From the NCBI GenBank assembly GCA_963818525.1, contig CAWFSO010000004.1:49624-113623 (forward strand): DNA of 64,000 nt. Reading direction: 5' to 3'. Positions 15 to 64,000 of the stretch are shown here, one piece after another (position 1 is the first letter of the stretch; each line of letters opens with the position of its first letter). The translations under genes and the position numbers were made by a program. The notes below the pieces were generated by a model. That model had not been told where the DNA came from and did not search any database. It saw nothing but the letters and a program-made list of their open reading frames with translations. The stretch comes from an uncultured Rikenellaceae bacterium (GTDB taxonomy: Bacteria > Bacteroidota > Bacteroidia > Bacteroidales > VadinHA17).

Positions 15-1070
15 ATGGAAAATGTGCCGGCCAGGAGGCCAGGAAAGAGACCCGTAAGACCGGGTACCGACAAGGCTGAAGGAGGAAGAGAGAGATCGGT
101 CAGACCGGGTGCCGGCAAGGCTGAAGGGGGAAGAGAGAGATCATCCAGGCCGGGTGCCGGCAAGGCTGAAGGAGGAAGAGAGAGATCAGCCAGGCCCACC
201 ACCGAAAGGGCTGCAGATGAAAGAAAGAGATCCGCGAGGCCCGGTGCCAGACCCGGAACCAGGCCCCCCGCCGGAGCAGGTAAGAGATCGGTCAGACCGG
301 CTGCCGGAGCAGGTAAGAGATCAGCCAGACCGGCCGCAATACCAGCTGCAGCGGAGCTGATCAGGCTGAACAAATACATTGCAAACAGCGGCGTCTGCGC
401 CCGCCGTGAAGCCGATGAACTCATAAAGAACGGATATATCGCCGTCAACGGTAAAAAGGTCACCGACATGGGTGTCAAGGTAAAACCCACTGACACAGTT
501 GAATACAAAGGCAAAGCACTGACCCCGGGAAAGAAGGTCTATATCCTGCTCAACAAGCCCAAGGGGTACGTGACCACCGTAAAGGATCCGCATGCCGATC
601 TGACCGTACTTGACCTGGTGAAGGATGCCACCACTGAGAGAATATATCCCGTCGGAAGGCTTGACAAGTCAACCACCGGCGTACTGCTTCTCACAAACGA
701 CGGTGACCTGGCAGGGAAACTGACACACCCCAGTTTCGGTGCGAAGAAAATATACCACGTCTTCACTGACAAGGACATTACCAGGCATGATATGGAGGCA
801 ATAGTCAGCGGCGTAACCCTCGATGACGGGAAGGTAAGTGCCGACGCCATCTCCTACCCTGACGCCGAAGACCACACGCAGGTGGGACTCGAGTTGCACT
901 CCGGACAGAACAGGGTTGTCAGACGCATCTTCGAGAAGCTGGGATACCGGGTCAGGAAGCTTGACCGCGTCAGCTTCGCCGGCCTGACGAAGAAGAACCT
1001 TCAGCGCGGCCACTGGAGGCATCTGACCGATAAGGAGGTAAGCATGCTTAAGAGAGGTATCTACAAATAG
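15..1070 (+). CDS. RluB/RsuA-family pseudouridine synthase with a repetitive Arg/Lys-rich N-terminal extension
   Basis: 351-aa ORF. It has an S4 RNA-binding motif (LIRLNKYIANSGVCARREADELIKNGYIAVNGK) followed by the catalytic-Asp motif GRLDKSTTGVLLLTNDG. The first ~110 aa are RPGAGKAEGGRERS-type repeats. Confidence 0.85.
   Translation: MENVPARRPGKRPVRPGTDKAEGGRERSVRPGAGKAEGGRERSSRPGAGKAEGGRERSARPTTERAADERKRSARPGARPGTRPPAGAGKRSVRPAAGAGKRSARPAAIPAAAELIRLNKYIANSGVCARREADELIKNGYIAVNGKKVTDMGVKVKPTDTVEYKGKALTPGKKVYILLNKPKGYVTTVKDPHADLTVLDLVKDATTERIYPVGRLDKSTTGVLLLTNDGDLAGKLTHPSFGAKKIYHVFTDKDITRHDMEAIVSGVTLDDGKVSADAISYPDAEDHTQVGLELHSGQNRVVRRIFEKLGYRVRKLDRVSFAGLTKKNLQRGHWRHLTDKEVSMLKRGIYK
57..338 (+). 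repeat. In-frame coding tandem repeat (about 45 bp / 15 aa units, then shorter AGAGKRS(V/A)RPAA units)
   Basis: The DNA unit ccgggtgccggcaaggctgaagg.ggaagagagagatc is repeated head to tail. The translated units are RPGTDKAEGGRERSV / RPGAGKAEGGRERSS / RPGAGKAEGGRERSA / RPTTERAADERKRSA. Confidence 0.85.
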
Positions 1071-22565: not shown

Positions 22566-24524
22566 CTAGATCTCCTTCTTTAATATGATGACCTCTGCCT
22601 GTTTGCGAATGATTTCAGAATAGAATTTCCTGATTGAGGCGTACCTATCGGGAAGGTAGGTGACGGTGGAGAAGCTGATCTCCGACTCAAGCGTGACCTT
22701 TCGGCCGTCAGCGCTGATGTTGTAGATGAACCCGGCTCCTCCCCCATCCATTCGCAAATTTACCGACTGAGGAAGTTCTGCTACGGTCCATCCCTCGGGA
22801 ATGGTTATGGTGCATCTGTATTTCTCCGTTGAGGGGCATGTCAGGTCAATCACCGAAATACGCTCTTCGGCGTAAAATTCATTCGATTCCTTGCGGCCAT
22901 ACAGGACAGGATTCAGGTACATGAAACCGTCGCCATTGTCTGTGGCCCCCGGGATGGCAAGGCTGATCCTCTCAATGACCGGTTCCTCCGGCTTTTCGAG
23001 GTTTTCAAGCTCAAGACCTGAAATTTTCCAGTCTGAATAGACTGACTGCATAAAATCGCGGTAAGCCTCGGTTCCCTGGAGGGAACAGGTCTTCCTCACC
23101 ATCCATGCGTAATAGCTCTCATAGACGTTGGTTGCCTTTCCGGTCAGGCCGCCCTTTTCATCCAGCTCCATTTCGAGGGAGACTGTTTCGCCGTAATGCT
23201 CACCATTGTTCAGGTCTACCCATGACCCTCCCAGTTCGTCAACCAGCCATCCCTGTCCGTTGAGGCACTCCTCCGGCAGCATGTTGAACGGCCTCAGAGG
23301 GTCGGTAGCGTCGATGACATATACTTTCCCCTCTGCCGTTGCTGCAACAGCCACATGATTGAACTTCCTGATGATCGCGAAGAAGGGGTTAACCAGGCCA
23401 TGTTCGCGCGTACTGAGTATCAGCGGATCCGCCTGTAACCCGGCCATCCTGAGCATTGCCAGGAGCATCAGGTTAATGTCTGCCGCATTACCCCGCGCGT
23501 CCTCATAAATTTTTGACATTGAGGCGGAAGCGGTGAAGTCGGAGTAACCGTTCCACATCATATAATCGGAAACCCAGGTAAAGATGCGTCTGAGAATATC
23601 TGTTTCAGATCCTCCCATTGACTTAAGCTCATCTGCCTTTTTCCTGACCACTGCAGCCTTATCAATGTAACCTCCGAAATCTGTCCGGGCCAGCAGCTTC
23701 TCCGAAAGTCTGGGGTAGGTAGGCGAGACCTCCTCGAAGTAGTAACCGGGGATATTGATCTTTGAGAGTTCGAACCCGATCCTCGCGTAAAAGTCCTCCG
23801 AGCCGGTGCTGAACGGCTCCTCACGGTAAGCCGGTATGTTGTTTCCTCTCCATGTCCCAGAGAATCCTTCAACACTGCTGTCTCCGAACAGAACCCTTCG
23901 CTGCCCGCTGTTGTACCTGATGCCGAAGAGATTTCCGCCGGGCACGAATTTGTACTCGAAATAGCCGGGGAACTCGACCTGGAAATTGCATCTCCTGACG
24001 GGGATGTCATGCTGGAACTCCAGGGTATAGAGGGTAAAGTAGTCAGGGCTCTCCAGGGTGTACCTGTATTCAATCACCGTGCCGGGCCTGACATTTGGGA
24101 CCGAGAAACGCAGTGTGCTCGTGTAACGGCTCGTATTTTCATAATAGAGACTCTTTTTGTCGACCAGGCTCTGCACGGTAACCCCATCTTCCAGGTTATA
24201 GGCCGCAGCCCTCATCCCTATGATCTTCTCATCACTGCCATAGGGCAGCTCGACATTGGCGTAATCGAGCCCGTCGGTATTGATGATCTTGATCCTCACA
24301 TGGCAATCGGTAACGACGGTGATCTTCTCGGCGGATCGCATACTTACCATGGCATGGTTTTCCAGGATCACGGCATCAGCCGACGGATCGGGTTCATACA
24401 CTGCCATTTCAAGATCCTCCTTCGGGATCTCGCCGAAGGTGATCTCTTTGATCTGGCCGGCTAGTGATGTGCTGAAGGCCAGGGAGACCAGGCTCAAGGT
24501 TATCAGTCGAAAAGAATTGTGCAT
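22566..24524 (-). CDS. DUF3857 / transglutaminase-like protein (catalytic Cys apparently replaced)
   Basis: 652 aa with a signal peptide. The equivalent core reads ARGNAADINLMLLAMLRMAGL...FNHVAVA, with Ala in place of Cys. It lies 5 nt from the downstream paralog. Confidence 0.7.
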   Translation of the reverse strand: MHNSFRLITLSLVSLAFSTSLAGQIKEITFGEIPKEDLEMAVYEPDPSADAVILENHAMVSMRSAEKITVVTDCHVRIKIINTDGLDYANVELPYGSDEKIIGMRAAAYNLEDGVTVQSLVDKKSLYYENTSRYTSTLRFSVPNVRPGTVIEYRYTLESPDYFTLYTLEFQHDIPVRRCNFQVEFPGYFEYKFVPGGNLFGIRYNSGQRRVLFGDSSVEGFSGTWRGNNIPAYREEPFSTGSEDFYARIGFELSKINIPGYYFEEVSPTYPRLSEKLLARTDFGGYIDKAAVVRKKADELKSMGGSETDILRRIFTWVSDYMMWNGYSDFTASASMSKIYEDARGNAADINLMLLAMLRMAGLQADPLILSTREHGLVNPFFAIIRKFNHVAVAATAEGKVYVIDATDPLRPFNMLPEECLNGQGWLVDELGGSWVDLNNGEHYGETVSLEMELDEKGGLTGKATNVYESYYAWMVRKTCSLQGTEAYRDFMQSVYSDWKISGLELENLEKPEEPVIERISLAIPGATDNGDGFMYLNPVLYGRKESNEFYAEERISVIDLTCPSTEKYRCTITIPEGWTVAELPQSVNLRMDGGGAGFIYNISADGRKVTLESEISFSTVTYLPDRYASIRKFYSEIIRKQAEVIILKKEI

Positions 24525-24609
24525 CGCTTTGATAAGGTTAACAGTCGAAAAAGATTATGCATCGCTTTGATAAGGTTAACAGTCGAAAAAGATTATGCAT
24601 CGCTTTGAT
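24504..24609. repeat. 38-bp tandem repeat (about 2.8 copies) that duplicates the start codon and first codons of the 22566..24524 gene
   Basis: The copies are at 24504-24541, 24542-24579 and 24580-24609. Copies B and C both read cagtcgaaaaagattatgcatcgctttgat; the full 38-bp unit continues aaggttaa, whereas copy C diverges after tttgat. Copy A differs at a few positions and holds the annotated ATG (24524). Confidence 0.9.
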
Positions 24610-31940: not shown

Positions 31941-32125
31941 TTCTTAAGGTGGGCGAGGCTCAGCTGTTTTGTCATCTCAGGCTTAGCTCAATCGGTCTTC
32001 AGGCCGGGCGTGGCTATATAATTTCATCTGGTGAGCCGGCGGGTTCTGTTATTTCAGAAGTGGCGCGGCTCAGCTGTTATTCAGGCCTGACGTGGCTATG
32101 TTATTTCTTCAGGTGGGCGAGGCTC
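31941..32125. repeat. Degenerate ~26-30-bp tandem repeats derived from, and running into, the 3' end of valS
   Basis: The valS terminal sequence ttcttcaggtgggcgaggctc (32104-) recurs as ttcttaaggtgggcgaggctcagctgtt (31941-) and ttcagaagtggcgcggctcagctgtt (32052-). These copies are interleaved with ttcaggccgggcgtggctat (31998-) and tcaggcctgacgtggctat (32080-). Confidence 0.75.
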
Positions 32126-34728: not shown

Positions 34729-34731
34729 TGA

Positions 34732-34876
34732 ATTTGCGATTTGCGATTTGCGATTTGCGATTGGGGGATGTGGTGAGATTTGCGATTTGCGATTTGCGAT
34801 GGGGATGTGGTGAGATTTGCGATTGGTGGTTGTGATAAGATTTGCGACTGTCGATTTGCGATTTGCGATTGCGATT
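34732..34876. repeat. Heptamer microsatellite array (ATTTGCG)n with higher-order structure, abutting the valS start codon
   Basis: Four perfect ATTTGCG copies lie at 34732-34759. Then come GGGGGATGTGGTGAG, three copies, GGGGATGTGGTGAG and further interrupted copies. The array begins 3 nt from the valS ATG (34728). Confidence 0.9.
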
Positions 34877-35069
34877 AACAGTGATGCGTTAATTTATAAT
34901 TTACTGTGATATTTTATTGATAATAAATATATTACAAGCTCTCTTTGATTTATCGATTTATAAACCGGTATTTCAATATGTAAGGGGCAAAATTAACAAT
35001 TTGTTGCCATTATGGAAAAAGGAGAGTGAGCTTATGCCTAAAATCATGGTTCATTAAGGTGAATTTGAA

Positions 35070-35113: not shown

Positions 35114-36313
35114 ATGCCAAAGATCTCAGAAAAAGCCGGGAAAATGCCGGCATCGCCGATACGCAAACTCGTTCCCTATGCCGAGGAGGCAAAGCGTAAG
35201 GGCAGAAAGGTATACCACCTGAATATCGGGCAGCCTGATATCCACACTCCCGAACTGGCACTCAAGGCACTCAGGGAAACGGATATCAAGGTGATTGAAT
35301 ATACTCACTCCGCCGGGAATGAATCATACCGCCGCAAGCTGGCAGAGAGCTACCGGAAAATCGGCGTCGATGTTGACCACACTGAGATCATCGTCACAAC
35401 CGGTGGGTCCGAGGCAGTGCTGTTTGCATTCATGTCATGCCTCGATCCGGGTGAAGAGGTGATCACCTTCGAACCATTTTACGCCAACTATAACGGCTTT
35501 GCCACCTCTGCCGGAGTAACCATCGTACCGGTGAGGTCATTTATCGAAAATGACTTCGCACTGCCTCCCATCAGTGAGATCGAAAAGAAGATCACACCGA
35601 AGACAAAAGCCATCCTTATCTGCAACCCCAACAACCCGACAGGCTCACTCTATTCGAAGGAGGAGCTGATGCAGCTTCGAGACATAGTGAAGAAGTATGA
35701 CCTGTTCCTATTCTCTGACGAAGTGTACAGGGAGTTTTGCTACGGCGCAGACCATTTCTCAGCCATGGAGCTTGAGGGGATAAGGGAGAATGTGGTGCTA
35801 CTCGACTCTGTGTCAAAACGATACAGCATGTGCGGGGTGCGCATCGGCGCCCTGATCACCCACAACAGGGAGGTGCTGGCGGCCGCTCTAAAGTTCGGCC
35901 AGGCAAGGCTATGCCCTCCGGAGCTTGGACAGATAGTTGCCGAAGCGGCTCTTGACACGCCCAAAGAGTATTTTGATGCTGTCTACAATGAGTATATAGC
36001 CCGCCGCGACTTCATGGTCGAGGCTCTTAACAATATGCCGGGCGTCTATTGCCCGATGCCCCGCGGTGCTTTCTATACGGTGGTGAAGCTGCCGATAGAC
36101 GACTCCGACAGGTTCGCGCAGTGGCTGCTTGAGGACTTCAGTTACAACAACCAGACGGTGATGGTGGCGCCCGCAACGGGGTTCTATTTCACTCCCGGCG
36201 CCGGCAAGAACGAGGTGCGTGTTGCCTATGTGCTGAAGATCGATGACCTCCGCAAGGCGATGGAAACCCTGGCCGAGGCGCTGAAGGTCTACCCGGGAAG
36301 AATTATGAATTAA
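35114..36313 (+). CDS. PLP-dependent class I/II aminotransferase (aspartate/aromatic aminotransferase-like)
   Basis: 399 aa. It has the PLP-lysine motif SVSKRYSMCGVRIG, plus NPNNPTGSLYS and DEVYREF blocks. Confidence 0.88.
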   Translation: MPKISEKAGKMPASPIRKLVPYAEEAKRKGRKVYHLNIGQPDIHTPELALKALRETDIKVIEYTHSAGNESYRRKLAESYRKIGVDVDHTEIIVTTGGSEAVLFAFMSCLDPGEEVITFEPFYANYNGFATSAGVTIVPVRSFIENDFALPPISEIEKKITPKTKAILICNPNNPTGSLYSKEELMQLRDIVKKYDLFLFSDEVYREFCYGADHFSAMELEGIRENVVLLDSVSKRYSMCGVRIGALITHNREVLAAALKFGQARLCPPELGQIVAEAALDTPKEYFDAVYNEYIARRDFMVEALNNMPGVYCPMPRGAFYTVVKLPIDDSDRFAQWLLEDFSYNNQTVMVAPATGFYFTPGAGKNEVRVAYVLKIDDLRKAMETLAEALKVYPGRIMN

Positions 36314-36330
36314 AAATTAAGAATTAAGAG

Positions 36331-36699
36331 TTATTGGCTAGGGTCAGGATGAAGTTTCTGAGTCATTGTCTTTTTTATTGACCCTGTTATCTTTAACAAC
36401 TCTTCAAGATCTGTCATAAGTTCTTCTGCCTCAGGTTTTTCTATAAGATCAGAATCCCTCAGTAGCTTGAGCCAGAATATAGTTTCACGGCATTCTTTAT
36501 ATGATATGCTGATTTTTGACAGAAAATCTCGCTCTGATTGACCTCCGACAGCCTCTTCAATATTAGCGGCGATAGATGTACCGCTTCTCAGGATCTGACG
36601 TGACAATTCAAATTCGTTCTGATTTTTAAGTGAAAGGTACAATCTTACAATTTTCAAAGCCAGGGCATAACTCTTCTCTATTGCAATATTTTCCTTCAT
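36331..36699 (-). CDS. Four-helix-bundle protein (23S rRNA intervening-sequence protein family)
   Basis: 122 aa. Family-typical sequence is YALALKIVRLYLSLK...LSRQILRSGTSIAANIEEAVGGQSERDFLSKISISYKECRETIFWLKLL. The gene is visibly more AT-rich than its neighbours. Confidence 0.8.
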   Translation of the reverse strand: MKENIAIEKSYALALKIVRLYLSLKNQNEFELSRQILRSGTSIAANIEEAVGGQSERDFLSKISISYKECRETIFWLKLLRDSDLIEKPEAEELMTDLEELLKITGSIKKTMTQKLHPDPSQ

Positions 36700-36741
36700 A
36701 ACCCCCTCATTACAAATTTCTTAATTCTTAATTATTAACTC

Positions 36742-37917
36742 TTAATTATATATAAGGTACTTCGCGCGGATGATCTTGAATTGATCAAGCCCCTCCTTCC
36801 ACGTGGCTTTGATCTCTTCCGCCGTCATACCCTGGATTATCTGCTCACGCAATGTGCTGCTGCCTGCCAGGGTGTCAAAATATCCGTTGAAGAAACTCTC
36901 TTTCTCAGGATAGGCATTGTAGGCATCAATGATCCATCCGAGGTTCATCTCCGGCTTCGGAACGATGCCGTCAGTCAGCGCGTTCCGCAGGTCGGTGCCA
37001 TAACACACCACCCCGTTATGCTTCGGGTTCGATGCACCGAAAGTGGGTTGCGGCGTGAAGCTGAAGCCTGTGTCGGGCATCTTCGGCGCCCCCAGCACCT
37101 GGAACGGAAACTCCGTACCCCTGCCGCACGAGAGCACTGTCCCTTCGGCAAAACATAAAGAAGGATAGAGATAGATCGAATTCATGTTGGGGAGGTTGGG
37201 CGACGGTATGACCGGCAGCTCATACATCGTTGCATGAGTATAGTTTTCGCATTGAATAACCTTAAGATCGCACTTCACACCCTTTGCCAGCCACCCCTCT
37301 CCGTTGACCATCCCGGCATATTCGCCCAGCGTCATCCCATGCACCACGGGGATAGGGTGTATCCCCACAAAGGAACTGTATCCGGCGGTGTCAAGGATGG
37401 GTCCGTCAACATAGAAACCATTGGGATTGGGACGGTCGAGGACGATGAACTGCTTGCCGTTCTCGGCACAGGCCTCCATGACGTAACACATTGTGGTCAG
37501 ATAGGTGTAGAACCTTGTCCCAACATCCTGGATGTCAAAGATGACGACATCGATTCCTTCAAGGTCTTCAGCCGCCGGTTTCTTCTTGTTTCCATAGAGA
37601 CTCATAACATTGATGCCCGTGACGGGATCGGTACCTGAGGTTATTTCCGCACCGGCATCGGCCAGGTCCCTGAAGCCGTGCTCAGGAGCGAAGATCAGTT
37701 TTATGTTTGCACCCAGCGAGAGCAGGGTGTCAATCAGATGGGCACCGCCAACCATTGAGGTCTGGTTGGCCACCACGGCAACCGTTTTGCCTCCAATCAG
37801 CGGGAGGTACTCGCTGATTCGCTCAGCGCCGGTCGTGAGCCTGTTGTCATTTTTGTCAGCTGAACATGCCGTGCCGGCCGTCACCAGAAGAAAGGTCAGT
37901 ATGAAAAGGTTCTTCAT
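36742..37917 (-). CDS. DUF1343-family protein (exo-beta-N-acetylmuramidase NamZ-like)
   Basis: The ORF is trimmed to the MKNLFILTFLLVTAGTACS signal peptide. Family-like blocks are VAVVANQTSMVGGAHLIDTL, IFAPEHGFRD, VIFDIQDVGTRFYTY and VLDRPNPNG. Confidence 0.7.
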   Translation of the reverse strand: MKNLFILTFLLVTAGTACSADKNDNRLTTGAERISEYLPLIGGKTVAVVANQTSMVGGAHLIDTLLSLGANIKLIFAPEHGFRDLADAGAEITSGTDPVTGINVMSLYGNKKKPAAEDLEGIDVVIFDIQDVGTRFYTYLTTMCYVMEACAENGKQFIVLDRPNPNGFYVDGPILDTAGYSSFVGIHPIPVVHGMTLGEYAGMVNGEGWLAKGVKCDLKVIQCENYTHATMYELPVIPSPNLPNMNSIYLYPSLCFAEGTVLSCGRGTEFPFQVLGAPKMPDTGFSFTPQPTFGASNPKHNGVVCYGTDLRNALTDGIVPKPEMNLGWIIDAYNAYPEKESFFNGYFDTLAGSSTLREQIIQGMTAEEIKATWKEGLDQFKIIRAKYLIYN

Positions 37918-43100: not shown

Positions 43101-43175
43101 GATTTGCGATTTGCGATTTGCGATTTGCGAATTTTGATTAAATCGACAATCGAAAATCCGAAATCGAAAATTCCT
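43101..43175. repeat. Heptamer array with inverted halves between the convergent genes gatD and mltF
   Basis: (GATTTGC)x4 is followed by gaattttgattaaa and then tcgacaa tcgaaaa tccgaaa tcgaaaa. The second half approximates the reverse complement of the first, so an imperfect long hairpin is possible. Confidence 0.85.
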
Positions 43176-52125: not shown

Positions 52126-53210
52126 CAATTACCTCGTCAGAATTTTTTATTGCCAGTCTCCTTATGTTGTCAGAAAGTTGATTTCGCTTTGCGTCGTCAT
52201 GCACCAGTGTCAGGGCCGTATTGATGAGCGCTGTCTGTGCATCGGAGTCTCTTACCAGTATGGCGGCGCCACGGTTGACGAGGGCCATGGCATTGTGCGT
52301 CTGGTGGTCCTCAGCCACGTTGGGTGACGGCACGAGGATGACCGGCTTGCCGACCAGTGCCAGCTCGGAGATGGTACCGGCGCCGGCACGGGAGATGATG
52401 ACATCGGCGGCGGCATAGGCCAGGTCCATACGGTTTATGAAGCCTGTGACAACAGTGTTGGTCACAGCCTTCTCTTCAGCCAGCTCGCGCATCCGGTCAT
52501 AATAGTGACTGCCGGTCTGCCATATCATCTGCACACCGGATGCCTCCACCTGGCCTATGCCGCCACCGACACTGTTGTTGACCGTGCCGGCGCCGAGCGA
52601 CCCGCCCAGAACAAGTATCACCGGCATGCCTGGCTTCAGCCTGAAGTGCTCCATCGCCTCCGCCCTGAGCGCATCCAGGTTGTCATAGGCCTGCCTGACA
52701 GGATTGCCCGTCAGTATTATTTTTTCCTTCGGGAAATATTTTTCCATCCCCTCATAGGCCACGCATATCTTTTCCGCCTTCTTCGCCAGCAGCCTGTTGG
52801 TCACACCGGCATAGCTGTTCTGCTCCTGTATCAGGGTGGGTATGCGCTTCCGCTGCGCCTGCTTCAGCACCGGGCCTGAGACATATCCACCGACGCCCAC
52901 AACAACATCAGGACCGAACCTCCTGATTATCTGTGCCGACTTCATTATGCTGCGGAAGAGCTTCCATGCCACATGGAATGTTTTTGACACTGACACCGCG
53001 TACCAGTCCTGCCACCGACAGCCCCTCTATCTCGTAGCCGGCCTCGGGCACCTTCTGCATCTCCATCTTCCCGATGGCGCCGACAAACAGGATTTTCACC
53101 GCCGGCTCAATGCGCCGCAGGGCGTTGGCAATGGCAATGGCCGGGAAGAGATGCCCGCCGGTGCCGCCTCCGCTGATGATGATCCTTATATCTTTACCCT
53201 CCGCGCTCAT
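52094..53210 (-). pseudogene. murG: UDP-N-acetylglucosamine--LPS/undecaprenyl transferase MurG, interrupted by a 1-nt frameshift as assembled
   Basis: The N-terminal ORF (53210..52908) carries [17 protein letters not shown]. The C-terminal ORF (52996..52094) carries [16 protein letters not shown]...GGSLGA...SRAGAGTISE. The frames switch at an A5 run (T5 on the plus strand, 52981-52985). Confidence 0.85.
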
Positions 53211-53363
53211 GTTAATCTTGTATCTTTCTCTCGCTGCTTATGCTAATCCTTGTGTCTTTCTGTCGCCGTTAATGCTGATACTCCTGTCTTTTCCTTCACC
53301 GCTCATTCTTTTCCTTGTATACTGTCCCGCGCCCCTCATGCCGGTATCTTGTCTGTCTGTTCA
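53203..53363. repeat. ftsW/murG spacer made of five degenerate ~30-36-bp tandem copies of the ftsW-stop/murG-start junction
   Basis: Units start at 53203, 53233, 53265, 53301 and 53329. They read cgcgctcatgttaatcttgtatctttctct / cgctgcttatgctaatccttgtgtctttctgt / cgccgttaatgctgatactcctgtcttttcc... / cgctcattcttttccttgtatactgtcc / cgcgcccctcatgccggtatcttgtctgtctgt. Confidence 0.8.
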
Positions 53364-55961: not shown

Positions 55962-57361
55962 CTATCGTATCTTCAGTGTCACCACGCTCAGCACCGCCAG
56001 TAATATGGCGACGATCCAGAATCGTGTGACTATCTTGGGTTCAGCATATCCTAGCTTCTGATAATGGTGGTGCAGCGGCGCCATGAGGAAGATGCGCCTG
56101 CCCTCGCCGTATTTGCGCTTCGTTCTCTTGAACCAGCTCACCTGTATCATGACCGACAGGCTCTCAATGAAGAAGACTCCGCACAGGATGGGTATCAGAA
56201 GCTCTTTCCTTATCACTATGGCGAAGACGGCGATGATCCCGCCGAGGGTGAGGCTGCCGGTGTCGCCCATGAAGACCTGCGCCGGGTAGGAGTTATACCA
56301 GAGGAAGCCCACCGTGGCACCGGCAAAGGCGGCGGCAAAGATCACCAGCTCGCCAATGTTAGGTAAATACATTATTTGCAGGTAGTTAGCAAAGATGACG
56401 TTACCCGAGACATATGCAAGTATGCCAAGAGTGACCCCTGCGACAGCACTTGTTCCTGTTGCCAGCCCGTCAAGGCCGTCGGTGAGGTTGACGCCGTTGG
56501 AGACGGCCACCACCACGAAGATCACCATCGCCATGAAAACCAGCCATCCGAGCAGCTGCTTCGTCTTCCCCTTGGCAAACGGAACCAGCCATGAGTAGTC
56601 GAACTCGTTATTCTTGACAAAGGGGATGGTGGTCTTGGTAGACTTGATGTTGACTGCCGTTGACTGTGGAATGATTTCTCCCGGCTGCCCTGCTGCCATA
56701 TTCCTGACACATCCGCTGATGTATCCGTTGACATCATCGAGGACATGTTCGCCGACGCCTCCATTGAGGTATCCGTAGACATGCTCTGCGAAACATTTCC
56801 CGTAAAACCCGCTGACACATCTGCATACATATCCGTCGACATATCCGCTGAAGCCACCGTAACACCTGCGGGAGCGCTGACATTGACCCTGACAACCACA
56901 TCATCACTGATATAAAGTGTCAGGGCCACGATAAGACCCAGGCCGACCTGGCCCATGATCTTGAAACGGCCGGCAAGGCCCTCCTTGTTCTTTTTGAATA
57001 TCTTGATGTAATCGTCCATGAATCCGATGAGGCCAACCCAGACAGTGGTGATGATCATAAGGATGATATAGACGTTGTCAAGCCTCGCGAAGAGAAGAAC
57101 GGGAACAAGGATGGATGCAATGATTATGATGCCACCCATCGATGGGGTGCCCTGTTTCCTGTACTGACCCTCGAGGTCGAGATTGCGTATTGTCTCTCCT
57201 ATCTGCCTGCGCTGCAGGTAGTATATCAGCCTTTTCCCGATCAGCACTGCGATTATGAGGGAGGTGATGACAGCAGCAGCAGACCTGAACGAGAGATAAT
57301 TGAATACTCCTGCTCCGGGAACGCCAAGTTCATCGAGGTATCTGAAGAGATAATACAACAT
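55962..57361 (-). pseudogene. mraY: Phospho-N-acetylmuramoyl-pentapeptide transferase MraY, with a repetitive loop insertion and a frameshift as assembled
   Basis: The N-terminal ORF (57361..56522) carries [11 protein letters not shown] and [17 protein letters not shown]. The C-terminal ORF (56699..55962) carries [40 protein letters not shown] and APLHHHY. The two are in different frames across an S/T/D/M-rich repeat segment. Confidence 0.85.
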
Positions 57362-57362
57362 A

Positions 57363-58820
57363 TCAACTTATATTAAATGCTTTACGTAACTCCTCCCTGT
57401 CATCGAAGTGGTGCCTGACACCCTTCACCTCCTGGTATGTCTCATGACCTTTGCCCGCGACGATTATTATGTCACCCGGCGTGGCCAGCATCACGGCAGC
57501 CCTGATGGCATCAGCGCGACCGGTTATGCGTATCATCTTCGGCATGGCGTCAGGGGTTAGTCCCGCTTCCATGTCGTCAATGATTTTGTCAGGATCCTCG
57601 CTGCGGGGATTGTCTGATGTCAGGATAAGCCTGTCGGCTCCGGCCGAGGCGATGCGCGCCATGACGGGCCTCTTGGTGCGGTCACGGTCGCCGCCGGCGC
57701 CCACAACCACTATCAGCCTGCCTGCTCCCTGCCTCAGCCTGTTAACTGCTTCGATCACATTCTCGACGGCGTCGGGTGTATGTGCATAGTCTACGATGCC
57801 GGTGATGCCGTCTGCCGAGCGTATCACCTCCATGCGGCCGTCAACGGGACGGAGCTTGCTGAGTATAGTCAGAACCTCTTCGCTCTGCGCGCCAAGAAGG
57901 ATTGCCGAACCGTATACCGCAAGAAGGTTTGATGCGTTGTAGTCGCCAATGAAGTGAGTCCACACCTCTGTGCCGTTGATTTTGAGCAGCATCCCCTCAA
58001 ATCCCTGCTCGATGATGTTGCACCGGAAGTCGGCCATTTTGCGCATTGAGAAAGTGTGCTTTGCCGCCCTGGTGTTCTGTGTCATCACCATGCCGTTCCG
58101 GTCGTCTGTGTTGACCAGGACAAAAGCTTCTTTCGGGAGGTCGTCGAAGAACTTCTTCTTTGCGGCGAGATAATTGTCAAAGGTCAGGTGGTAGTCGAGA
58201 TGATCATGGGTCAGGTTGGTGAAAACACCTCCCGCGAACTGCAGTCCGGCAATACGTTTCTGGTCAACGGCATGCGAGCTCACCTCCATGAATGCATATT
58301 CGCATCCTGCATCGACCATTTCCGCCAGGAGGGCATTCAGTTTGGCGGGGTCGGGAGTGGTATGCGTTGCATCCCTGCGCTCGAGATGCACATAGTTGCA
58401 GACCGTCGAGAGCAGTCCGCACTTGTATCCCAGCGCCTCGAACATATTATAAAGTAATGTTGCGATGGTGGTCTTGCCGTTGGTGCCCGTGACTCCCGTC
58501 AGCCTTAGCTTTCTTGAAGGGTGATCGTAGAATGCCGAGGCTGCCATTCCTGTTGCCGCTGCCGAGTCGTCGACTACTATCATGGTGACTCCTTCGAAGA
58601 GTTTTTCGGGAAGCGCTTCGCAGATGACTGCTGTTGCCCCTGACTCAACTGCTTTGCCGATGAAGGCGTGACCGTCGCTCTTCGTTCCCCTGACAGCTAC
58701 AAAGAGGCTGCCCGGCTTTACGTCACGGGAGTCGGCTGTTACACCGGTGATGAGCTTGTCTTCATCGCCGTAGATGGACGTCACCCTCAGTTCCTTCAGT
58801 ATATTCTTAAGCTCCTTCAT
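57363..58820 (-). CDS. murE: UDP-N-acetylmuramoyl-L-alanyl-D-glutamate--2,6-diaminopimelate ligase
   Basis: 485-486 aa with [14 protein letters not shown] and the DNPRSEDP motif. I prefer the ATG at 58820 over the GTG at 58823 used in the ORF track. Confidence 0.92.
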
Positions 58821-59001
58821 CACTTTTTCTCAGGTCAGACACTGATCACACTCTGTTTTTTCTTGCTTTATTCATCACTTTTTCTCAGGTCAAAGACTTT
58901 GCACAAACAGTTTCTTCCTTGCTTTATTCATCACTCTTATCATGCTGCCTTGTGCCTCCATTGCTTTTTTCATCTCCTCTTTCATGCTCCCCGGTTCTCC
59001 A
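58816..59001. repeat. ftsI/murE spacer: 55-56-bp tandem repeat (2+ copies) of the murE start region, followed by shorter degenerate ATG-containing pieces
   Basis: U1 (58816-58870) reads ttcatcactttttctcaggtcagacactgatcacactctgttttttcttgctttat. U2 (58871-58926) reads ttcatcactttttctcaggtcaaagactttgcacaaacagtttcttccttgcttta. U3 begins ttcatcactcttatcatgc at 58927. Confidence 0.85.
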
Positions 59002-61035
59002 TCACCTCAGTCTCAATTCAATCGCCACGGTTGCTCCACGCTTAATTCTGACCCCCGGCTGCGGCGACTGACGTGCCACTTTGCCGCGACCGCTATAGTT
59101 CACTCTCAGTCCGCTGTTCTCAAGCATGAACATGGCATCACGAAGGCCCATTCCTACCACATTCGGCATCAGACCCTCTGACCAGGTGAGGTCATCCTTA
59201 CTTACTATGTCCGCTGCTTCACGAAACTTTACCTTATCCTCATTATCAGGATTCAGAGCCCGCAGGTCGCGGTAAAAACTGGTAGCGTACACCTTGTCTG
59301 CTATCTCCTTAAAAACTGGTCCCGACACCACATTGCCGTAATAGACCCAGTTCGACGGCGCATTGACAACTACGATGCATGAATAGAGCGGGTCATCTGC
59401 CGGGAAGTAACCCACAAACGATGCCTGGTATGATATGCGTGCGCCGGAGCGGTACCCGTGCTTTGCATTGGCTATCTGGGCGGTGCCAGTCTTACCGGCG
59501 ATCTTGTAATTGCTGTTCTTCAGGTTCTTGGCAGTGCCGTTCTCCACCACTCCTTCAAGCAGCGACTGCGCCTTGTTGATGGTTGAGCGAGAGCAGATTG
59601 CGTTGGTGATCACCTCCGTCTCAAACGACTTGACCGTCCAGTTGCCGTCACGCACCTCTTTCACGAACCTTGGCTTGACCATCTTCCCGTCATTGGCCAC
59701 GGCGTTGTAGAATGTCAGTATCTGAAGCGGGGTCATAAGCACCTCATAACCGTGCGACATCATCGGGAGCGAAATGCCCGACCAGAGCTTGTCTCCCGGA
59801 TAGCGGATGACAGGCTTGCCTTCGCCCTGTATCTGGAGGCCAAGCGGCTTGTCAATCTGCATCGAATAGAGACGGTCAACATACCGGCGCGGGTTGTCCT
59901 TGTAGCCTTCGCTTATGATCTTGGCGGTGCCAACGTTCGATGAGTGCTCAAAGACCTCGCGGGCTGTGATCTTTCCCAGTCCCTCTTCCTCGTGGTCACG
60001 TATGATCTTGTCGTAGTATCTGACAGTGCCGTCGCCGGTGTTTATTGTGTCATGCAGGTCAACGATGCCATCCTCCATCGCGGCTATCATCGACATCAGC
60101 TTGAAGGTCGATCCCGGCTCGGTGCTCTCTCCCACTGCGTAGTTGTATGTCTCATGGTACTGGCCATCCGAACCTATCTCGAGGTTGGCGATGGCCTTGA
60201 TGTCACCGGTGCGCACCTCCATCACCACCGCGCAGCCGTGATGGGCCTTGTGCCTGGCAAGCTGCTTGTAGAGAGCGTTCTCTGCTGCATCCTGCAGGTC
60301 CAGGTCGATGGTGGTGACGACATTATAACCCGGACGCGCATGCACCGACTCGAGGTTGTCGACATCGATCCATGCCCCTCCCGTCAGGCGCTGCTGCACC
60401 TTCAGCCCGTCCTTCCCGGCGAGGTAGCTGTTGAATGATCCCTCAATACCGACAATACTCGTGATGGTGTCATCAGTGATGTATCCGATGGTACGCCGTG
60501 CCAGCAGCCCATTGGGCATGATGCGCCTGTTCTCGGGCTGGTAGACAAACCCTCCCCTGAACTTACCGTGGCGGAAGATCGGGAGCTGCTTGAGGTGGCT
60601 GAGCGTTTCATAGCTGACGTGCCTTTTGATGAGGTAGTACCTGTCGCCGCGCTTGCGGGCGTTGGTCAGGGTCGTCCTCCACCCTTCGGGGGAGTTGCCT
60701 CCGACATATTTCGAGAGACCGCGGCAGAGGCCGCTGATGCCGTTGGCCCAGGTGGTGTCGGCCATGCCCGAGCTGCGGGTGTCCATGTAGACGGTGTAGT
60801 ACGGGATGGAGCTTGCAAGGATGCGGCCGTCGTCGGAGAGGATGTCGCCCCTGGCGGCCTGGTCGACCTGCCTGCGGAAGACGACCTTGTCGGCCATGGC
60901 GGCCCACTTGTCAGACTGCACGAACTGCAGGATGATAATGCGTACGAAGACGGCAATGGCCATCAGCACCACAACGGCGTAAATGATGCCGGTGCGTGCA
61001 AGTATCTGGTCTTTTGGTTTCGTCTTCTTACTCAT
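59002..61035 (-). CDS. ftsI: Penicillin-binding protein 3 / FtsI transpeptidase
   Basis: 677 aa with an N-terminal TM helix, a PBP dimerisation domain, the motifs STFK (PGSTFKLMS), SSN (HSSNVG) and KTG (AGKTGTAQ), and a C-terminal PASTA-like domain. Confidence 0.92.
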   Translation of the reverse strand: MSKKTKPKDQILARTGIIYAVVVLMAIAVFVRIIILQFVQSDKWAAMADKVVFRRQVDQAARGDILSDDGRILASSIPYYTVYMDTRSSGMADTTWANGISGLCRGLSKYVGGNSPEGWRTTLTNARKRGDRYYLIKRHVSYETLSHLKQLPIFRHGKFRGGFVYQPENRRIMPNGLLARRTIGYITDDTITSIVGIEGSFNSYLAGKDGLKVQQRLTGGAWIDVDNLESVHARPGYNVVTTIDLDLQDAAENALYKQLARHKAHHGCAVVMEVRTGDIKAIANLEIGSDGQYHETYNYAVGESTEPGSTFKLMSMIAAMEDGIVDLHDTINTGDGTVRYYDKIIRDHEEEGLGKITAREVFEHSSNVGTAKIISEGYKDNPRRYVDRLYSMQIDKPLGLQIQGEGKPVIRYPGDKLWSGISLPMMSHGYEVLMTPLQILTFYNAVANDGKMVKPRFVKEVRDGNWTVKSFETEVITNAICSRSTINKAQSLLEGVVENGTAKNLKNSNYKIAGKTGTAQIANAKHGYRSGARISYQASFVGYFPADDPLYSCIVVVNAPSNWVYYGNVVSGPVFKEIADKVYATSFYRDLRALNPDNEDKVKFREAADIVSKDDLTWSEGLMPNVVGMGLRDAMFMLENSGLRVNYSGRGKVARQSPQPGVRIKRGATVAIELRLR

Positions 61036-61403
61036 TGACTGGAGTTCTTTTCTGGCTGGGTGGTTGGATTGGGGTACTGTTGATTGCTGGCTGGCTCTGA
61101 ATTTGTGTTTGCGGTGGCTGACTAGTGTGTGTTATACTGATCTGATGGTGTGGCTGCTTTGGGTTACTTATGACTGTTTTTGTGACTGTTGACTGGTTGG
61201 TGATCAATATTGGGCTGTTTGATTCTTGTGATTGCTGGATCTCTTTAACTGGGTAATTGCGGTGGTTTTATTTATTTCTGCTGTACTATTCTTACTGTAA
61301 GGTAACTTTGGGTTTGTTGCGTATTACTGTTCTGATCTGACTGTCTGATTACTTTGACTTACTCTTGTATTCTTGTCCAATTCTTCCTGCTTGGTTGCAT
61401 GAT
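61036..61403. repeat. 368-bp strand-skewed spacer (GT-rich on plus, AC-rich on the transcribed minus strand) between ftsL and ftsI, with a recurring TGACTG/CAGTCA motif
   Basis: The plus strand is dominated by T and G. TGACTG-like words recur (ttgactggag, ggctgactag, tatgactg, gtgactgttgactgg, atctgactgtctga). No ORF of 60 aa or more lies on the minus strand in this interval. Confidence 0.8.
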
Positions 61404-62054
61404 TTACTTGTTCACTACTATCCTGTAAGGCGGCTCGCGAAGTTCCTCGAGACCCAGTCCCCTCTCCTTAACCAGATCCGTTATCTCACTCTGGCGGCTC
61501 ACGCTGCCCAACTCTGCCGAGACCGAGAGCGCCTCCGCCCGCATATCCCTCACCTCCTGTTCAAGGACTATAATCTCGCGCTCAACACGCTCAGCATTGA
61601 ACTTATTGGCAATGAAGATGATAGCTAGCACGGCAATAAGAGCCGAGTATTTCATGTCCTTGAGAATCAGACTCTCGGAGATCAGTGTCCCGCTTATCAG
61701 CCCCTTGAATATACCCCCCTGGCTCTTTTTGCCTGAGGATTTCGGTCTGGAGGCCTGCCCTGCTCCTGACTGCCCTTCCGCTGACTGACCATCAGTTGAC
61801 TGACTGCCGACTGCTGTCCCGACACTGCGTGTTCGGGATTGATTCTCCTCCTTCGTCGGAGCATCAAACTGCCGACTGCTGACTGAGGACGGAGCATCAA
61901 ACTGCCGACCGCCGACTGCCGTCCCGACACTGCGTGTCCGGGATTGAGTCTCCTCCTTCGTCGGAGCCTCAAACTGCCTGCCTCCGGCTGAATTTTGCAG
62001 CTGTTTGATCAACTGACGGGCACTCCATCCCTCTGTGTTCCTCTCCTCTTCCAT
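61404..62054 (-). CDS. ftsL: FtsL-like cell division protein with a repetitive N-terminal extension
   Basis: 216 aa. The C-terminal half has a TM helix (YSALIAVLAIIFIANKF) plus a coiled coil (EREIIVLEQEVRDMRAEALSVSAEL), and the gene sits between rsmH and ftsI. The N-terminal ~120 aa contain GRQF(E/D)APTKEE.QSRTRSVGTAVG repeats. Confidence 0.75.
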   Translation of the reverse strand: MEEERNTEGWSARQLIKQLQNSAGGRQFEAPTKEETQSRTRSVGTAVGGRQFDAPSSVSSRQFDAPTKEENQSRTRSVGTAVGSQSTDGQSAEGQSGAGQASRPKSSGKKSQGGIFKGLISGTLISESLILKDMKYSALIAVLAIIFIANKFNAERVEREIIVLEQEVRDMRAEALSVSAELGSVSRQSEITDLVKERGLGLEELREPPYRIVVNK

Positions 62055-62059
62055 CCTCT

Positions 62060-62960
62060 TCAGATTTTCTCCGCTATCCTTAACCTTGCACTGCGTGCCC
62101 TTCTGTTTTCTGAAATCTCCTCCGGCGTTGGAACGATCACCTTGCGGTTCACAGCCTTGAACGGAGTTGACAAGTTCCCGTAGAAATCCTTGTCGCTCTC
62201 ACCCTCGAAATTGCCGGTGCGGATGAAATTCTTCACCAGCCTGTCCTCAAGCGAGTGGTATGTTATCACTGCCAGCCGGCCTCCGGGCTTCAGTACCTGA
62301 AGGGCCTGCGAGAGCATCTCCGTGAGAGCATCCAGCTCATGGTTCACCTCAATGCGTAACGACTGAAACAGCCGTGCATAAAACTTATTCTCCTCCCATG
62401 ACGGGACCAGTCCCGCAAGCGCCGACATGAGGTCACTGACGGTATTTATCGGTTTGCTTAACGCGTGCTTTGACTATGGCCGCTGCCAGCTTCCGTGAGT
62501 TGGTCAGTTCGCCGTACTTGTAAAAAACATCTGCCAGCTTCTCTTCCTCGTAAGTGCGGAGGATGTCCGATGCCCTGAGGGTCGACTGGCGGTTCATGCG
62601 CATGTCGAGTTCCGCATCGCTGCGGAAGGAGAAGCCCCTCTCCTGCTCATCGAACTGATGAAACGAGACGCCGAGATCAGCTATCAGTCCGTCGATTTCG
62701 GTTATCCCGAGGTAGCGAAGGTTGTTCTTCAGGTACCGGAAGTTCTGGTTGAGGAGGGTGAACCGTGCGTCGCTGATGCTGTTCGCTTCGGCATCGGCAT
62801 CCTGGTCAAAAGCAATGAGCCTGCCTGAGGTGAGCTGGTCGAGGATGGCGCGCGAGTGTCCTCCGCCTCCGAAGGTTACGTCGACATAAATCCCGTCGGG
62901 CCTGAGGTTTAGCCCTGCAATGCTCTCTGTCAGCAGTGCCGGGAGGTGATAAATGACCAT
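62060..62960 (-). pseudogene. rsmH: 16S rRNA (cytosine1402-N4)-methyltransferase RsmH, frameshifted as assembled
   Basis: The N-terminal ORF (62960..62433) carries VDVTFGGGGHS and DLGVSFHQFD. The C-terminal ORF (62428..62060) carries FQSLRIEVNHEL and GRLAVITYHSLEDR. The second frame read upstream gives KPINTVSDLMSALAG, which continues the family alignment. Confidence 0.85.
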
Positions 62961-63424
62961 TATGCGGAACCGGTGTCGGGATTACCAAGCAGCTTCTCCG
63001 CCAGGTTGGCAAAGTCGTCGGAAGGAATGTCGATACGGGCGTATACCTCTTCAGCCCACATCTCTATGCGTCCGTCCTGCCCGGCGAGAACAACATCCTT
63101 CGCTATGCCCGCAAGGTCAAGGAGGCGCTTGGGTATCAGAAGCCTGTTGCTGCTGTCGAGCGACACCTCTGCCGTGCCCTTGAAGAAATTGCGGAGAAAG
63201 ATATTGTGCTCCCTGTTGTATGGGTTGATCCTGCTGCGGATCTTCTCGAGCTGCCTGTTCCAGTCGTCAATGGAGTAAAGGACGAGGCACCCTTCGAAGA
63301 TATCCTTTCTGACCACGAAGCGATCTTCAGCTGCCTTAGGCATCTGCTTCTTGAACGCGGCGGGGAGGATTACTCTTCCCTTGGCATCCAGCCTGCATGA
63401 ATAATCGCCGATAAATGTGGCCAT
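62960..63424 (-). CDS. mraZ: Transcriptional regulator MraZ
   Basis: 154 aa with two SpoVT/AbrB-like halves (RLDAKGRVILPAAFKK and LDSSNRLLIPKRLLD). It is the first gene of the dcw cluster. Confidence 0.92.
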   Translation of the reverse strand: MATFIGDYSCRLDAKGRVILPAAFKKQMPKAAEDRFVVRKDIFEGCLVLYSIDDWNRQLEKIRSRINPYNREHNIFLRNFFKGTAEVSLDSSNRLLIPKRLLDLAGIAKDVVLAGQDGRIEMWAEEVYARIDIPSDDFANLAEKLLGNPDTGSA

Positions 63425-63460
63425 CAGAGTTGTTGTTTCGGAGGGCTAATGTAGAAAGAT

Positions 63461-63503
63461 TTTTCCCACTTCCCTCCACTTTCCTCCATTTTTCTTCACT
63501 TTT
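63461..63503 (-). promoter_or_regulatory. Candidate MraZ operator: four direct GTGG-type boxes with exact 10-bp spacing
   Basis: The minus strand reads AAAGTGAAGA AAAATGGAGG AAAGTGGAGG GAAGTGGGAA. On the plus strand CAC/CAT falls at 63467-69, 63477-79, 63487-89 and 63497-99. The array lies 37-80 nt upstream of the mraZ ATG. Confidence 0.55.
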
Positions 63504-63810
63504 GTTGAAAACTTTGTTTTTAGGATATGTTTTGTGTGAGGGAAACAGCAAATTCTATATCCCCTACGAGGAACATAACTAATTGTCAATCATTACACTA
63601 CAATACTATATGCCCTACGGGCAATTGATTGCTGATGACAATCCCCTTAGTATTGATTGATACAATTCATTACCGCGTAGCGGTTAAAGTATTGTAGAAC
63701 TGCAAGTAAGATTAGATCAAGTACCCTGTAGAGCTTGCCCCGATAGCCCATGGGCGTATCGGGGGGATCAGGAATTTAGTACCGTCTTTAAATTCAATCC
63801 CCCTCATTCG

Positions 63811-63818
63811 TATCTTTG
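63811..63818 (+). promoter_or_regulatory. Candidate Bacteroidota -7 promoter box (TAnnTTTG)
   Basis: TATCTTTG lies 19 nt upstream of the ATG at 63837. Confidence 0.35.
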
Positions 63819-63836
63819 TATCTCTAATTACCCGGA

Positions 63837-64000
63837 ATGGCAGACACACCCACCCCGCTCCAGCTGGACGTTGAGCAGATCCTCGCCGACAAGAACCCGA
63901 AGATCCGCCGGATGCTTCCCGGCTTCGTCATCAGCTACCTGAAACGCATCGTCCACCAGGATATGATCAACGATATCCTCCGCAATTTCAGCCACCTCCG
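63837..64000 (+). CDS. Partial CDS (5' end only), possibly an acyltransferase-family protein
   Basis: An ATG at 63837 opens a frame that runs to the window edge (MADTPTPLQLDVEQILADKNPKIRRMLPGFVISYLKRIVHQDMINDILRNFSHL). The N-terminus resembles Bacteroidota lipid acyltransferases, but that is from memory only. Confidence 0.4.
   Translation, partial: MADTPTPLQLDVEQILADKNPKIRRMLPGFVISYLKRIVHQDMINDILRNFSHL

Follow-up and report, generated by a model that had tools for sequence, protein, structure and literature searches.

Intercistronic variable-number tandem repeats (VNTRs) have been described in mycobacteria as mycobacterial interspersed repetitive units (MIRUs; Supply et al. 1997, summarised in PMC3184786). 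In Bacteroidia, translation initiates at A-rich, unstructured and AUG-depleted translation initiation regions (TIRs; PMC6847099), and CA-rich single-stranded tails can act as standby sites or enhancers (PMC5934652). Here we describe a 368-nt non-coding, A/C-rich spacer (61036..61403, minus strand) between ftsL and ftsI in the dcw cluster of an uncultured Rikenellaceae bacterium, within a 64,000-nt stretch of contig CAWFSO010000004.1 that we call the window. We propose, with a probability of roughly 55 %, that this spacer is a slippage product kept inert, serving as an unstructured and AUG-poor leader for initiation of ftsI translation independent of Shine-Dalgarno (SD) sites. It is most likely a tolerated by-product and a plain leader, not a specific regulatory element.

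The dcw genes of the window lie on the minus strand in the order mraZ, rsmH, ftsL, a 368-nt gap, ftsI, a 178-nt gap, murE and mraY. Upstream of the spacer, ftsL (61404..62054, minus strand) is a 216-aa open reading frame (ORF) of the Bacteroidetes FtsL_2 family, with a Pfam match (PF19579, E=1.3e-18) to its C-terminal 94 residues (123-216) that reaches the last residue. Downstream, ftsI (59002..61035, minus strand) encodes a PBP3-type transpeptidase with the Pfam domains PBP_dimer, Transpeptidase and PASTA, and its N-terminus is conserved from its ATG onward. An initial annotation made from the letters alone had marked 61036-61403 as a non-coding stretch splitting two genes that are normally adjacent, and the gap that we measured has exactly these limits.

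Relatives were collected by an FtsI scan of GTDB species genomes and JGI/ENA metagenome contigs, which yielded 160 loci (designated by L numbers), all from environmental Bacteroidales or Rikenellaceae-like metagenome-assembled genomes (MAGs). For the 118 more distant loci that form the outgroup set (FtsI identity to the window about 80 % or less) the normal adjacency holds, the distance between the two genes being about -8 to +11 nt. In these loci, and in L010 and L088, the two genes overlap by 8 nt (cATGAGTAA; ATGAGTAA) or lie within ~11 nt of each other. The spacer was found only in uncultured Rikenellaceae-like MAGs that form a genus-level clade, at lengths of 27-407 nt and in many independent assemblies, both short- and long-read. 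Its bearers make up a crown clade with FtsI identity of at least 84 % plus the divergent L018 (76 %), which is grouped there by the tree. The window's closest relatives are L013 (98.5 % FtsI identity, spacer of 407 nt) and L019 (96 %, 361 nt).

The two ends of the spacer point to its origin. At the ftsL end stands AGTGAACAAGTAA (..V N K stop; 61404..61416, minus strand), the 5' copy of the ancestral overlap, which is now the end of ftsL only. At the ftsI end stands the 3' copy, AGTCAATGAGTAA (61028..61040, minus strand), which holds the ftsI ATG (61035-61033) and is identical to the junction of L088. This junction, AGTCAATGAGTAA, occurs as a single ancestral copy in L088, L016 and L010, and in L088 the 8-nt overlap is intact (..ATAGTAGTCAATGAGTAAGAAGACG..). 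Because both halves of the junction are found at the spacer ends, near-identical to the single junction of L088, the founding event reads directly from these sequences as a duplication of the ftsL/ftsI junction.

Two members of the spacer clade, L088 (2493-2508) and L010 (3993-4008), keep the ancestral 8-nt overlap, and L088 is nested among relatives with spacers of 27 and 238 nt. This nesting indicates that the spacer either arose more than once or can be lost cleanly.

Between its two ends the spacer of the window reads as a degenerate tandem array of about eight units with a period of 45-46 nt. The repeat search returned five 32-nt cores (repeat family D2), all on the minus strand and at spacings of 45, 45, 149 and 46 nt when counted from the ftsI side: the last unit AGTACCCCAATCCAACCACCCAGCCAGAAAAG (61047..61078), AGTCAGCCACCGCAAACACAAATTCAGAGCCA (61092..61123), AGTAACCCAAAGCAGCCACACCATCAGATCAG (61137..61168), which follows CAGTCATA, a decayed start, ACAAACCCAAAGTTACCTTACAGTAAGAATAG (61286..61317) and AGTAAGTCAAAGTAATCAGACAGTCAGATCAG (61332..61363). 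Autocorrelation gives clear periods of 45 nt for the spacer of L019, 37 nt for L015, 38 nt for L003 and 33 nt for L004. Spacer length differs between close relatives in a manner that reads as gain of repeat units. Thus L007 and L087 are 98.7 % identical in ftsI nucleotide sequence and have spacers of 88 and 226 nt, L087 having about two additional ~58-nt units; the spacers of L008 and L093 measure 105 and 162 nt, and those of L006 and L085 measure 110 and 159 nt, with 24-nt repeats in L085.

The array also appears to continue in phase into ftsI. One period (46 nt) past the last unit lie the first codons of ftsI (61001..61032, minus strand; AGTAAGAAGACGAAACCAAAAGACCAGATACT), a 32-mer that matches the five cores at 18, 12, 18, 18 and 16 of 32 positions, 82/160 (51 %) in total. 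For this in-phase score P is 0.0015 with shuffled queries, 0.0002 with all 35-mers and 0.004 with same-strand 35-mers that are A-rich. The junctions of near outgroups score 87 (L016), 86 (L014 and L017) and 82 (L010) against the units, the level of the window-wide null maximum, and distant outgroups with a different N-terminus score 55-56, which is null level. We conclude that the units are probably decayed copies of the junction together with the first ~13 codons of ftsI.

Several results speak against such an origin of the units. Smith-Waterman alignment of the ftsI 5' 48-mer of each locus with its own spacer was significant at 0 of 13 loci, and an nhmmer profile of the eight units gave no junction match in the 118 outgroup loci (925 kb). 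The 46-nt autocorrelation peak of the window itself is marginal (0.407 vs a 95 % null of 0.406), and the in-phase test was designed only after the sequence had been inspected. Since that test was chosen post hoc, we rate it as probable, and not as shown, that the units descend from the start of ftsI; three clear start-region arrays elsewhere in the window, described below, strengthen this case. The initial annotation had remarked that an upstream CAGTCA copy (at 61176, reading CAGTCATAAGTAAC) resembles the ftsI start region, a likeness that the in-phase match of 82/160 supports as one of shared ancestry.

On the transcript strand the spacer consists of A.446, C.274, G.141 and T.139. The ten most T+G-rich 368-nt segments of the 64 kb all overlap it (10/10), with T+G of 0.70-0.73 vs a mean of 0.500 and a standard deviation of 0.035, about 6 standard deviations off. 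Its A+C of.72 likewise exceeds the 0.38-0.59 found in the remaining 20 intergenic gaps of the window. The initial annotation had called the plus strand of the spacer almost entirely T/G; the skew is indeed the strongest in the 64 kb, but the actual figure is 72 %. Across about 40 spacers of the clade, some of them mutually unalignable, A+C ranges from.59 to.80, and all of them share A of.32-.49 and U of.08-.19. C exceeds G in most, but not in L002 (where G exceeds C), in L005 and L018 (where the two are about equal) or in the purine-rich L110 and L117.

Strand mutational bias was considered as a cause of this skew and rejected. Third codon positions on the coding strand of the window genes have A+C of.51 and A of.16, and the sister spacer between ftsI and murE (58824..59001, minus strand, 178 nt), which belongs to the same transcript, is A/G-rich, with A+G of.72. 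With unskewed third positions and an A/G-rich neighbour spacer, such a bias does not explain the skew. The ftsI-murE spacer was also gained in the same clade and is specific to it, with 29-258 nt vs an ancestral gap of -7 to -1.

While the sequence of the spacer drifts, its composition is held at steady state. Identity at aligned sites is.872 to L013 and.711 to L019, compared to.841 and.670 at 4-fold sites of ftsI, with 39 and 29 gap columns respectively. These identities near the 4-fold-site values, together with the many indels, suggest that substitution is about neutral and that indels are frequent. Within the sub-lineage the alignment is good over no more than the first ~100 and the final ~90 nt; a ~20-nt stretch ahead of the AUG stays conserved, and the other sub-clade conserves another block (TAACCTGACCY). 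We then polarised substitutions by parsimony in eight triplets of spacers and counted 73 changes from A/C to G/T vs 64 from G/T to A/C, on 749 A/C and 278 G/T sites. The flux is balanced vs the 73 % share expected under equal per-site rates (p<1e-4), and per site the rate from G/T to A/C is about 2.4x the reverse. Start codons are fewer than expected in the spacers of the window (3 vs 5.3) and of L013 (1 vs 5.6), and in the window's sub-lineage as a whole (5 vs 15.8). We infer from this upkeep of composition that selection keeps the spacer inert.

RNA folding is in line with the description of the leader as largely unstructured in the initial annotation. The spacer alone has a predicted minimum free energy (MFE) of -23.3 kcal/mol vs -37.4 kcal/mol for mononucleotide shuffles (z = +3.3), which is near structure-free; an equal length (368 nt) of ftsI coding sequence reaches -120 kcal/mol. 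For 401 nt including the spacer the MFE is -26.3 kcal/mol (z = +1.1 vs dinucleotide shuffles), and the spacer of L013 also folds worse than its own shuffles (z = +3.8). The predicted fold has no stable hairpin over the ftsI start, and no terminator-like hairpin was found in the spacer.

The window genes show no SD signal, as had been assumed: an SD-like core precedes 8 of 40 genes and there is no positional G peak. The TIR of ftsI contains a block, CCAGAAAAGAACTCCAGTCA (61036..61055, minus strand), that is conserved between the window, L013 and L019. It has A at -13 to -16 and G at -12, is predicted to be unpaired and holds no AUG in -21..-1. A single-stranded C/A-rich stretch (A+C.72) stands upstream of the start codon, the arrangement known from enhancer and standby tails, and a leader or standby role of the spacer would follow by analogy.

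Other observations weigh against an inert leader. Positions -3 and -6 of the ftsI TIR, where A is favoured, hold U and C, the flux test depends on alignments of low-complexity sequence, and the depletion of start codons is not significant across the clade (34 observed vs 43.5 expected). In the other sub-clade, small CCGG hairpins occur in the spacers, which fold no less stably than their shuffles. In addition, those of L002, L110 and L117 are purine-rich and not A/C-rich, which suggests that the property conserved in the clade is to be A-rich and U-poor, and not C/A richness as such.

Taken together, these results suggest the following scenario. In the ancestor, ftsL would have ended inside the start of ftsI (..GTC AAT GAG TAA, with ATG AGT AAG.. 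in the other frame). The junction would then have been duplicated in the clade, one copy retaining the ftsL stop and the other the ftsI start, and replication slippage or unequal recombination would since have lengthened and shortened the insert, adding tandem copies of 24-58-nt units or removing them. Upstream copies of the unit would have lost their ATG (to ATA or ACA), and CAGTCA would merely be part of the repeat unit. We hypothesize that the lineage is prone to slippage and that duplications are tolerated and build up across stop/start junctions or in disordered tails, the FtsL N-terminus being one of these. Selection would purge variants that fold, that make AUG, GUG or UUG decoys, or that make promoter or terminator signals; being A-rich and poor in U and G, the spacer cannot fold, offers few such decoys and carries no such signals. 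Translational coupling between ftsL and ftsI would be lost as an outcome, and the SD-blind ribosomes of Bacteroidia would load on the long single-stranded leader and start de novo at the ftsI AUG.

Expansion at the FtsL N-terminus can be seen in the window itself, where the N-terminal half of ftsL is a repetitive, lineage-specific expansion that includes a 105-nt tandem duplication (61783-61886 and 61888-61991). FtsL is 108-234 aa long in the clade vs ~119 aa in the outgroups, and the variation is at the N-terminus. The N-terminal repeat region (61700-62000 in the window) was also noted for L081, L082 and L015.

Tandem arrays at gene starts were found at other positions in the window, on the minus strand in each case. 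An array at 24496-24609 consists of three 38-nt copies that are 94 % identical, every one of which has an ATG (ATCAAAGCGATGCATAATC..); the last copy alone opens gene 24524..22566, and the two upstream copies open short out-of-frame ORFs. Between ftsW and murG, a 32-nt unit is repeated 4.9 times (53182-53341) as progressively decayed versions of the murG start: the copies read ATG, ATT and ATA before the genuine ATG at 53210, after which comes ..GGGTGGH. When murG is called by its longest ORF (GTG at 52996), the gene is shortened. A third array, of a 55-nt unit in 2.2 copies (58816-58935), includes the GTGATGAA start of murE.

A further leader, upstream of valS (32101-34728, minus strand), is built of about 15-20 heptamers (AATCGCA / CGCAAAT; 34729-34885, minus strand) that are broken by two copies of AATCTCACCACATCCCC, and the array ends right at the ATG. 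It has A.38, C.33 and G.09, and a predicted MFE of -8.7 kcal/mol per 172 nt; a -7-like box, TAATTTTG, lies at 34995-34988 on the same strand. As a second leader that is A/C-rich, repeat-built and unstructured, it shows that this class of sequence recurs in the genome.

Inverted copies of the same heptamer family occur between convergent genes at 43101-43171, as (GATTTGC)x4.3 followed by (AAATCGA)x4.6. They are predicted to form a hairpin of -25 kcal/mol, which could be a repeat-built bidirectional terminator. The 5' part of gene 15..1070 (plus strand) contains in-frame tandem repeats, 45-nt x4 (60-245) and 33-nt x2 (270-334), which read as another terminal coding expansion. A small gene, 36331..36699, is flanked by AAGAATT x5 (36298-36333) and TTCTTAA x4.3 (36718-36747). 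Together with the other arrays, these flanking repeats suggest that short tandem repeats are unusually dense around the gene boundaries of this genome.

At the right end of the window the dcw cluster starts with mraZ (63424..62960, minus strand), followed by rsmH (62960..62060, minus strand). Upstream of mraZ, at 63461-63503, a repeat with a 10-nt period resembling GTGGAGAAAA is present in 4.4 copies, the layout expected of putative MraZ operator boxes at the dcw promoter. At ~62457 a one-base insertion relative to L013 and L019 (GCGTTAAGC vs GCGC-AAGC) produces a frameshift that divides rsmH into two ORFs; the extra base may be an assembly indel or a genuine frameshift. In the same manner mraY (55962-57361) is called as two overlapping ORFs that break just past a low-complexity insert rich in Ser, Thr, Asp and Met, and the gene is intact in L013 (492 aa) and L019 (468 aa). 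Two frameshifts in one window suggest indel errors of the assembly.

Similarity searches place the spacer in its own locus only. A blastn search of the spacer against the window and the 160 loci matched only the orthologous spacers of L013 and L019, and an exact-pattern scan of metagenome contigs with the window's ftsI-proximal 28-mer gave no match. The idea of a dispersed repeat was rejected, as neither the 64-kb window nor, these orthologues apart, the 160 loci hold a second copy.

The alternative that survives best is that the spacer is purely neutral junk, a minisatellite made by slippage whose A/C richness was inherited from an A-rich seed and carried on by repeated copying. Its near-synonymous substitution rate, its abundant indels, its length polymorphism within a species and the wealth of tandem arrays at gene boundaries in the window all agree with this explanation, as does the finding that young arrays retain their seed's composition, those of murE and murG being purine-rich like the gene starts. 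What it does not predict is that the composition stands at steady state instead of relaxing, with the faster per-site rate from G/T to A/C, and this steady state contradicts pure neutrality. Neither does it account for the clade spacers that stay within the same A+C range even when they can no longer be aligned, for the unskewed synonymous sites of the coding strand, or for spacers that fold worse than their own shuffles in the window and L013. We consider pure neutrality unlikely, though worth serious consideration.

It is also conceivable, at a speculative level and with a lower probability, that tandem duplication of TIRs in this Bacteroidales lineage is a recurrent builder of long, unstructured and length-polymorphic leaders before genes for division, the cell wall and housekeeping (ftsI, murE, murG, valS and others) that have been co-opted as copy-number 'rheostats'. 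If so, the arrays would replace translational coupling and set the stoichiometry of FtsI to FtsL and of the Mur enzymes in bacteria unable to use SD sites; selection would act on composition itself, and ribosome loading or the access of Rho would depend on how long the array is.

Rho brings us to a further explanation, namely that the spacer is a Rho-utilisation (rut) site at which Rho loads and, by attenuating transcription in the ftsL-ftsI interval, sets how strongly the upstream dcw genes are expressed relative to the downstream ones. The rut sites of E. coli Rho are C-rich, G-poor, unstructured and untranslated. The spacer shares part of this character, since it is unstructured and without a conserved ORF, has C of.27 vs G of.14, reaches a transcript-strand (C-G)/(C+G) of 0.40 over 61000-61199 and exceeds the minimum of 70-80 nt for an untranslated stretch with C>G; the valS leader is still more C-rich and G-poor. 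On the other hand, C>G is not conserved, as L002, L005, L018, L110 and L117 are without it, and the sister dcw spacers have G>C. The dominant base is A (45 %), which does not activate Rho, and the essential genes from ftsI through ftsZ lie downstream with no internal promoter motif found. A rut site is therefore improbable here.

Still less probable is a sequence-specific platform, in which the CAGTCA or CAGU words would bind an RNA-binding protein, a small RNA or a ribonuclease controlling ftsI. That CAGTCA recurs many times in the spacer, as noted in the initial annotation, is borne out by 5 copies vs 0.10 expected, and the shorter CAGT is present in 10 copies vs 0.93; none of the shuffles reached either count. 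The final copy (61041-61036) runs directly up to the ATG at 61035, again as described. The words also continue into the 5' half of ftsL, where the extension noted there amounts to 8 copies of CAGTC, and 13 of the 71 minus-strand CAGTC copies of the window fall inside the single kilobase 61000-62000. In ftsL, the word is spread over all three codon phases, which makes it a nucleotide-level repeat word and fits a by-product of repeats. CAGTC is enriched in the region of the FtsL N-terminus of many relatives (9-12 copies). In spacers, it is present in 3 copies each in L013 and L019 and in 0-1 copies in other clade members, so the word is not conserved across the clade and its enrichment is confined to the window's own sub-lineage (3-5 copies). 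The platform fails because of this restriction; moreover the repeat unit explains the word, the places where it occurs are not conserved, and most of the spacer changes about as fast as synonymous sites do. The binding platform suggested in the initial annotation is not supported for these words.

An internal promoter providing ftsI and the downstream genes with their own transcription appears highly improbable, even though long intra-operon gaps often hold promoters and the loss of the overlap would permit one. Neither the Bacteroidetes -7 box (TAnnTTTG) nor TTTG occurs on the transcript strand of the spacer, which is only 14 % T, and no spacer of the clade has a -7 box. A search of 60800-61700 for sigma-70-like promoters gave a single match, inside ftsI and on the opposite strand. 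On the plus strand, that is on the antisense T/G-rich strand of the spacer, TAACTTTG (61303-61310) matches the -7 box without a convincing -33 TTTG upstream; a chance match is expected in such composition.

We also searched the spacer for genes and structured RNAs. On the sense strand, a TTG ORF of 59 codons (61028..61207, minus strand) ends in ..PVNE and a stop across the ftsI ATG and has no Pfam match; it is missing in L013 and L019 and is thus not a gene. A mini-ORF, MQPSRKNWTRIQE (61359..61400, minus strand), begins 3 nt past the ftsL stop and varies in length, with 29 codons in L013, and there is an antisense ORF of 69 codons. None of the small ORFs on either strand is kept in L013 or L019, where they are lost or shortened. 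A search of 56000-64000 with the Rfam 15 covariance models (E<=1) returned nothing relevant, its sole match being an unrelated microRNA model inside ftsI with 24.9 bits vs a gathering score of 80. Neither a conserved small ORF nor a known non-coding RNA, two of the findings that the initial annotation had named as contrary to its reading, is thus present in the spacer. Hidden coding, be it a small protein, a disordered FtsL/FtsI linker masked by assembly frameshifts or an antisense hydrophobic peptide, has the 59- and 69-codon ORFs and the frameshifts of rsmH and mraY in its favour but is hardly credible, given stops in all three sense frames, unit lengths that are mostly not multiples of 3, an FtsL match and an FtsI N-terminus that are complete on either side, and spacers in so many independent assemblies.

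The locus documents how two tightly coupled genes that overlap in dcw, the most conserved bacterial operon, can be pulled apart, and natural gaps graded from -8 to 407 nt are now at hand for studying SD-less starts of Bacteroidia on internal cistrons. As an inert leader, the spacer would exemplify a class of sequence in which base composition is apparently selected while sequence and length are not. It would also illustrate a survivorship rule for a slippage-prone genome, where duplications persist at stop/start junctions or in disordered tails. For annotation, we suggest caution, as long skewed gaps with start-like words may be decayed copies of start regions and not regulators.

Among the known systems, the leader of tobacco mosaic virus called omega is 68 nt long, made of poly(CAA), completely free of G and of demonstrated enhancer activity. 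The spacer resembles it as a long A/C-rich and near structure-free leader of short repeats before an ORF. Compared to rut sites, the spacer is likewise untranslated and unstructured with twice as much C as G, but differs in being dominated by A, in its unconserved excess of C and in its position upstream of essential genes of the same operon.

In architecture, the closest analogue is the MIRU-VNTR. According to the summary of that work, MIRUs are tandem units, tens of bases long, that lie within an operon and are co-transcribed with its genes, vary in copy number between close strains and touch the flanking stop and start with their ends; the spacer shares this layout. The periods of 45-46 nt in the window, 45 nt in L019 and ~58 nt in L087 fall within the ~40-100 bp of MIRU units, and the variation of MIRU copy number between strains has its counterpart in L007 and L087, whose spacers measure 88 and 226 nt and whose ftsI genes are 98.7 % identical. 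Two defining features, dispersal and conserved overlapping ORFs, fail. MIRUs, as summarised, are dispersed at ~40-50 loci and G+C-paired, with small ORFs overlapping both neighbours, whereas the spacer has no copy elsewhere in the 64 kb or, its orthologues apart, in the 160 loci, and is unstructured and without a conserved ORF. Its units also appear to be derived locally, from the start of ftsI.

In its mode of action, we infer by analogy that the spacer comes nearest to unstructured leaders that are C/A-rich or A-rich. It shares with the C/A-rich enhancer and standby tails (PMC5934652) a single-stranded C/A-rich stretch upstream of the start, where accessibility counts and not a fixed motif. 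The effect of those tails saturates at ~16-18 nt and was shown in E. coli on a sequestered ribosome binding site, whereas the spacer is 368 nt long and the ftsI TIR is not sequestered. With the TIRs of Bacteroidia (PMC6847099) it shares the SD-less organism, the A-rich unpaired upstream region and A at -13 to -16, although the feature described there spans ~20 nt and not hundreds, with A favoured at -3, -6, -12 and -13.

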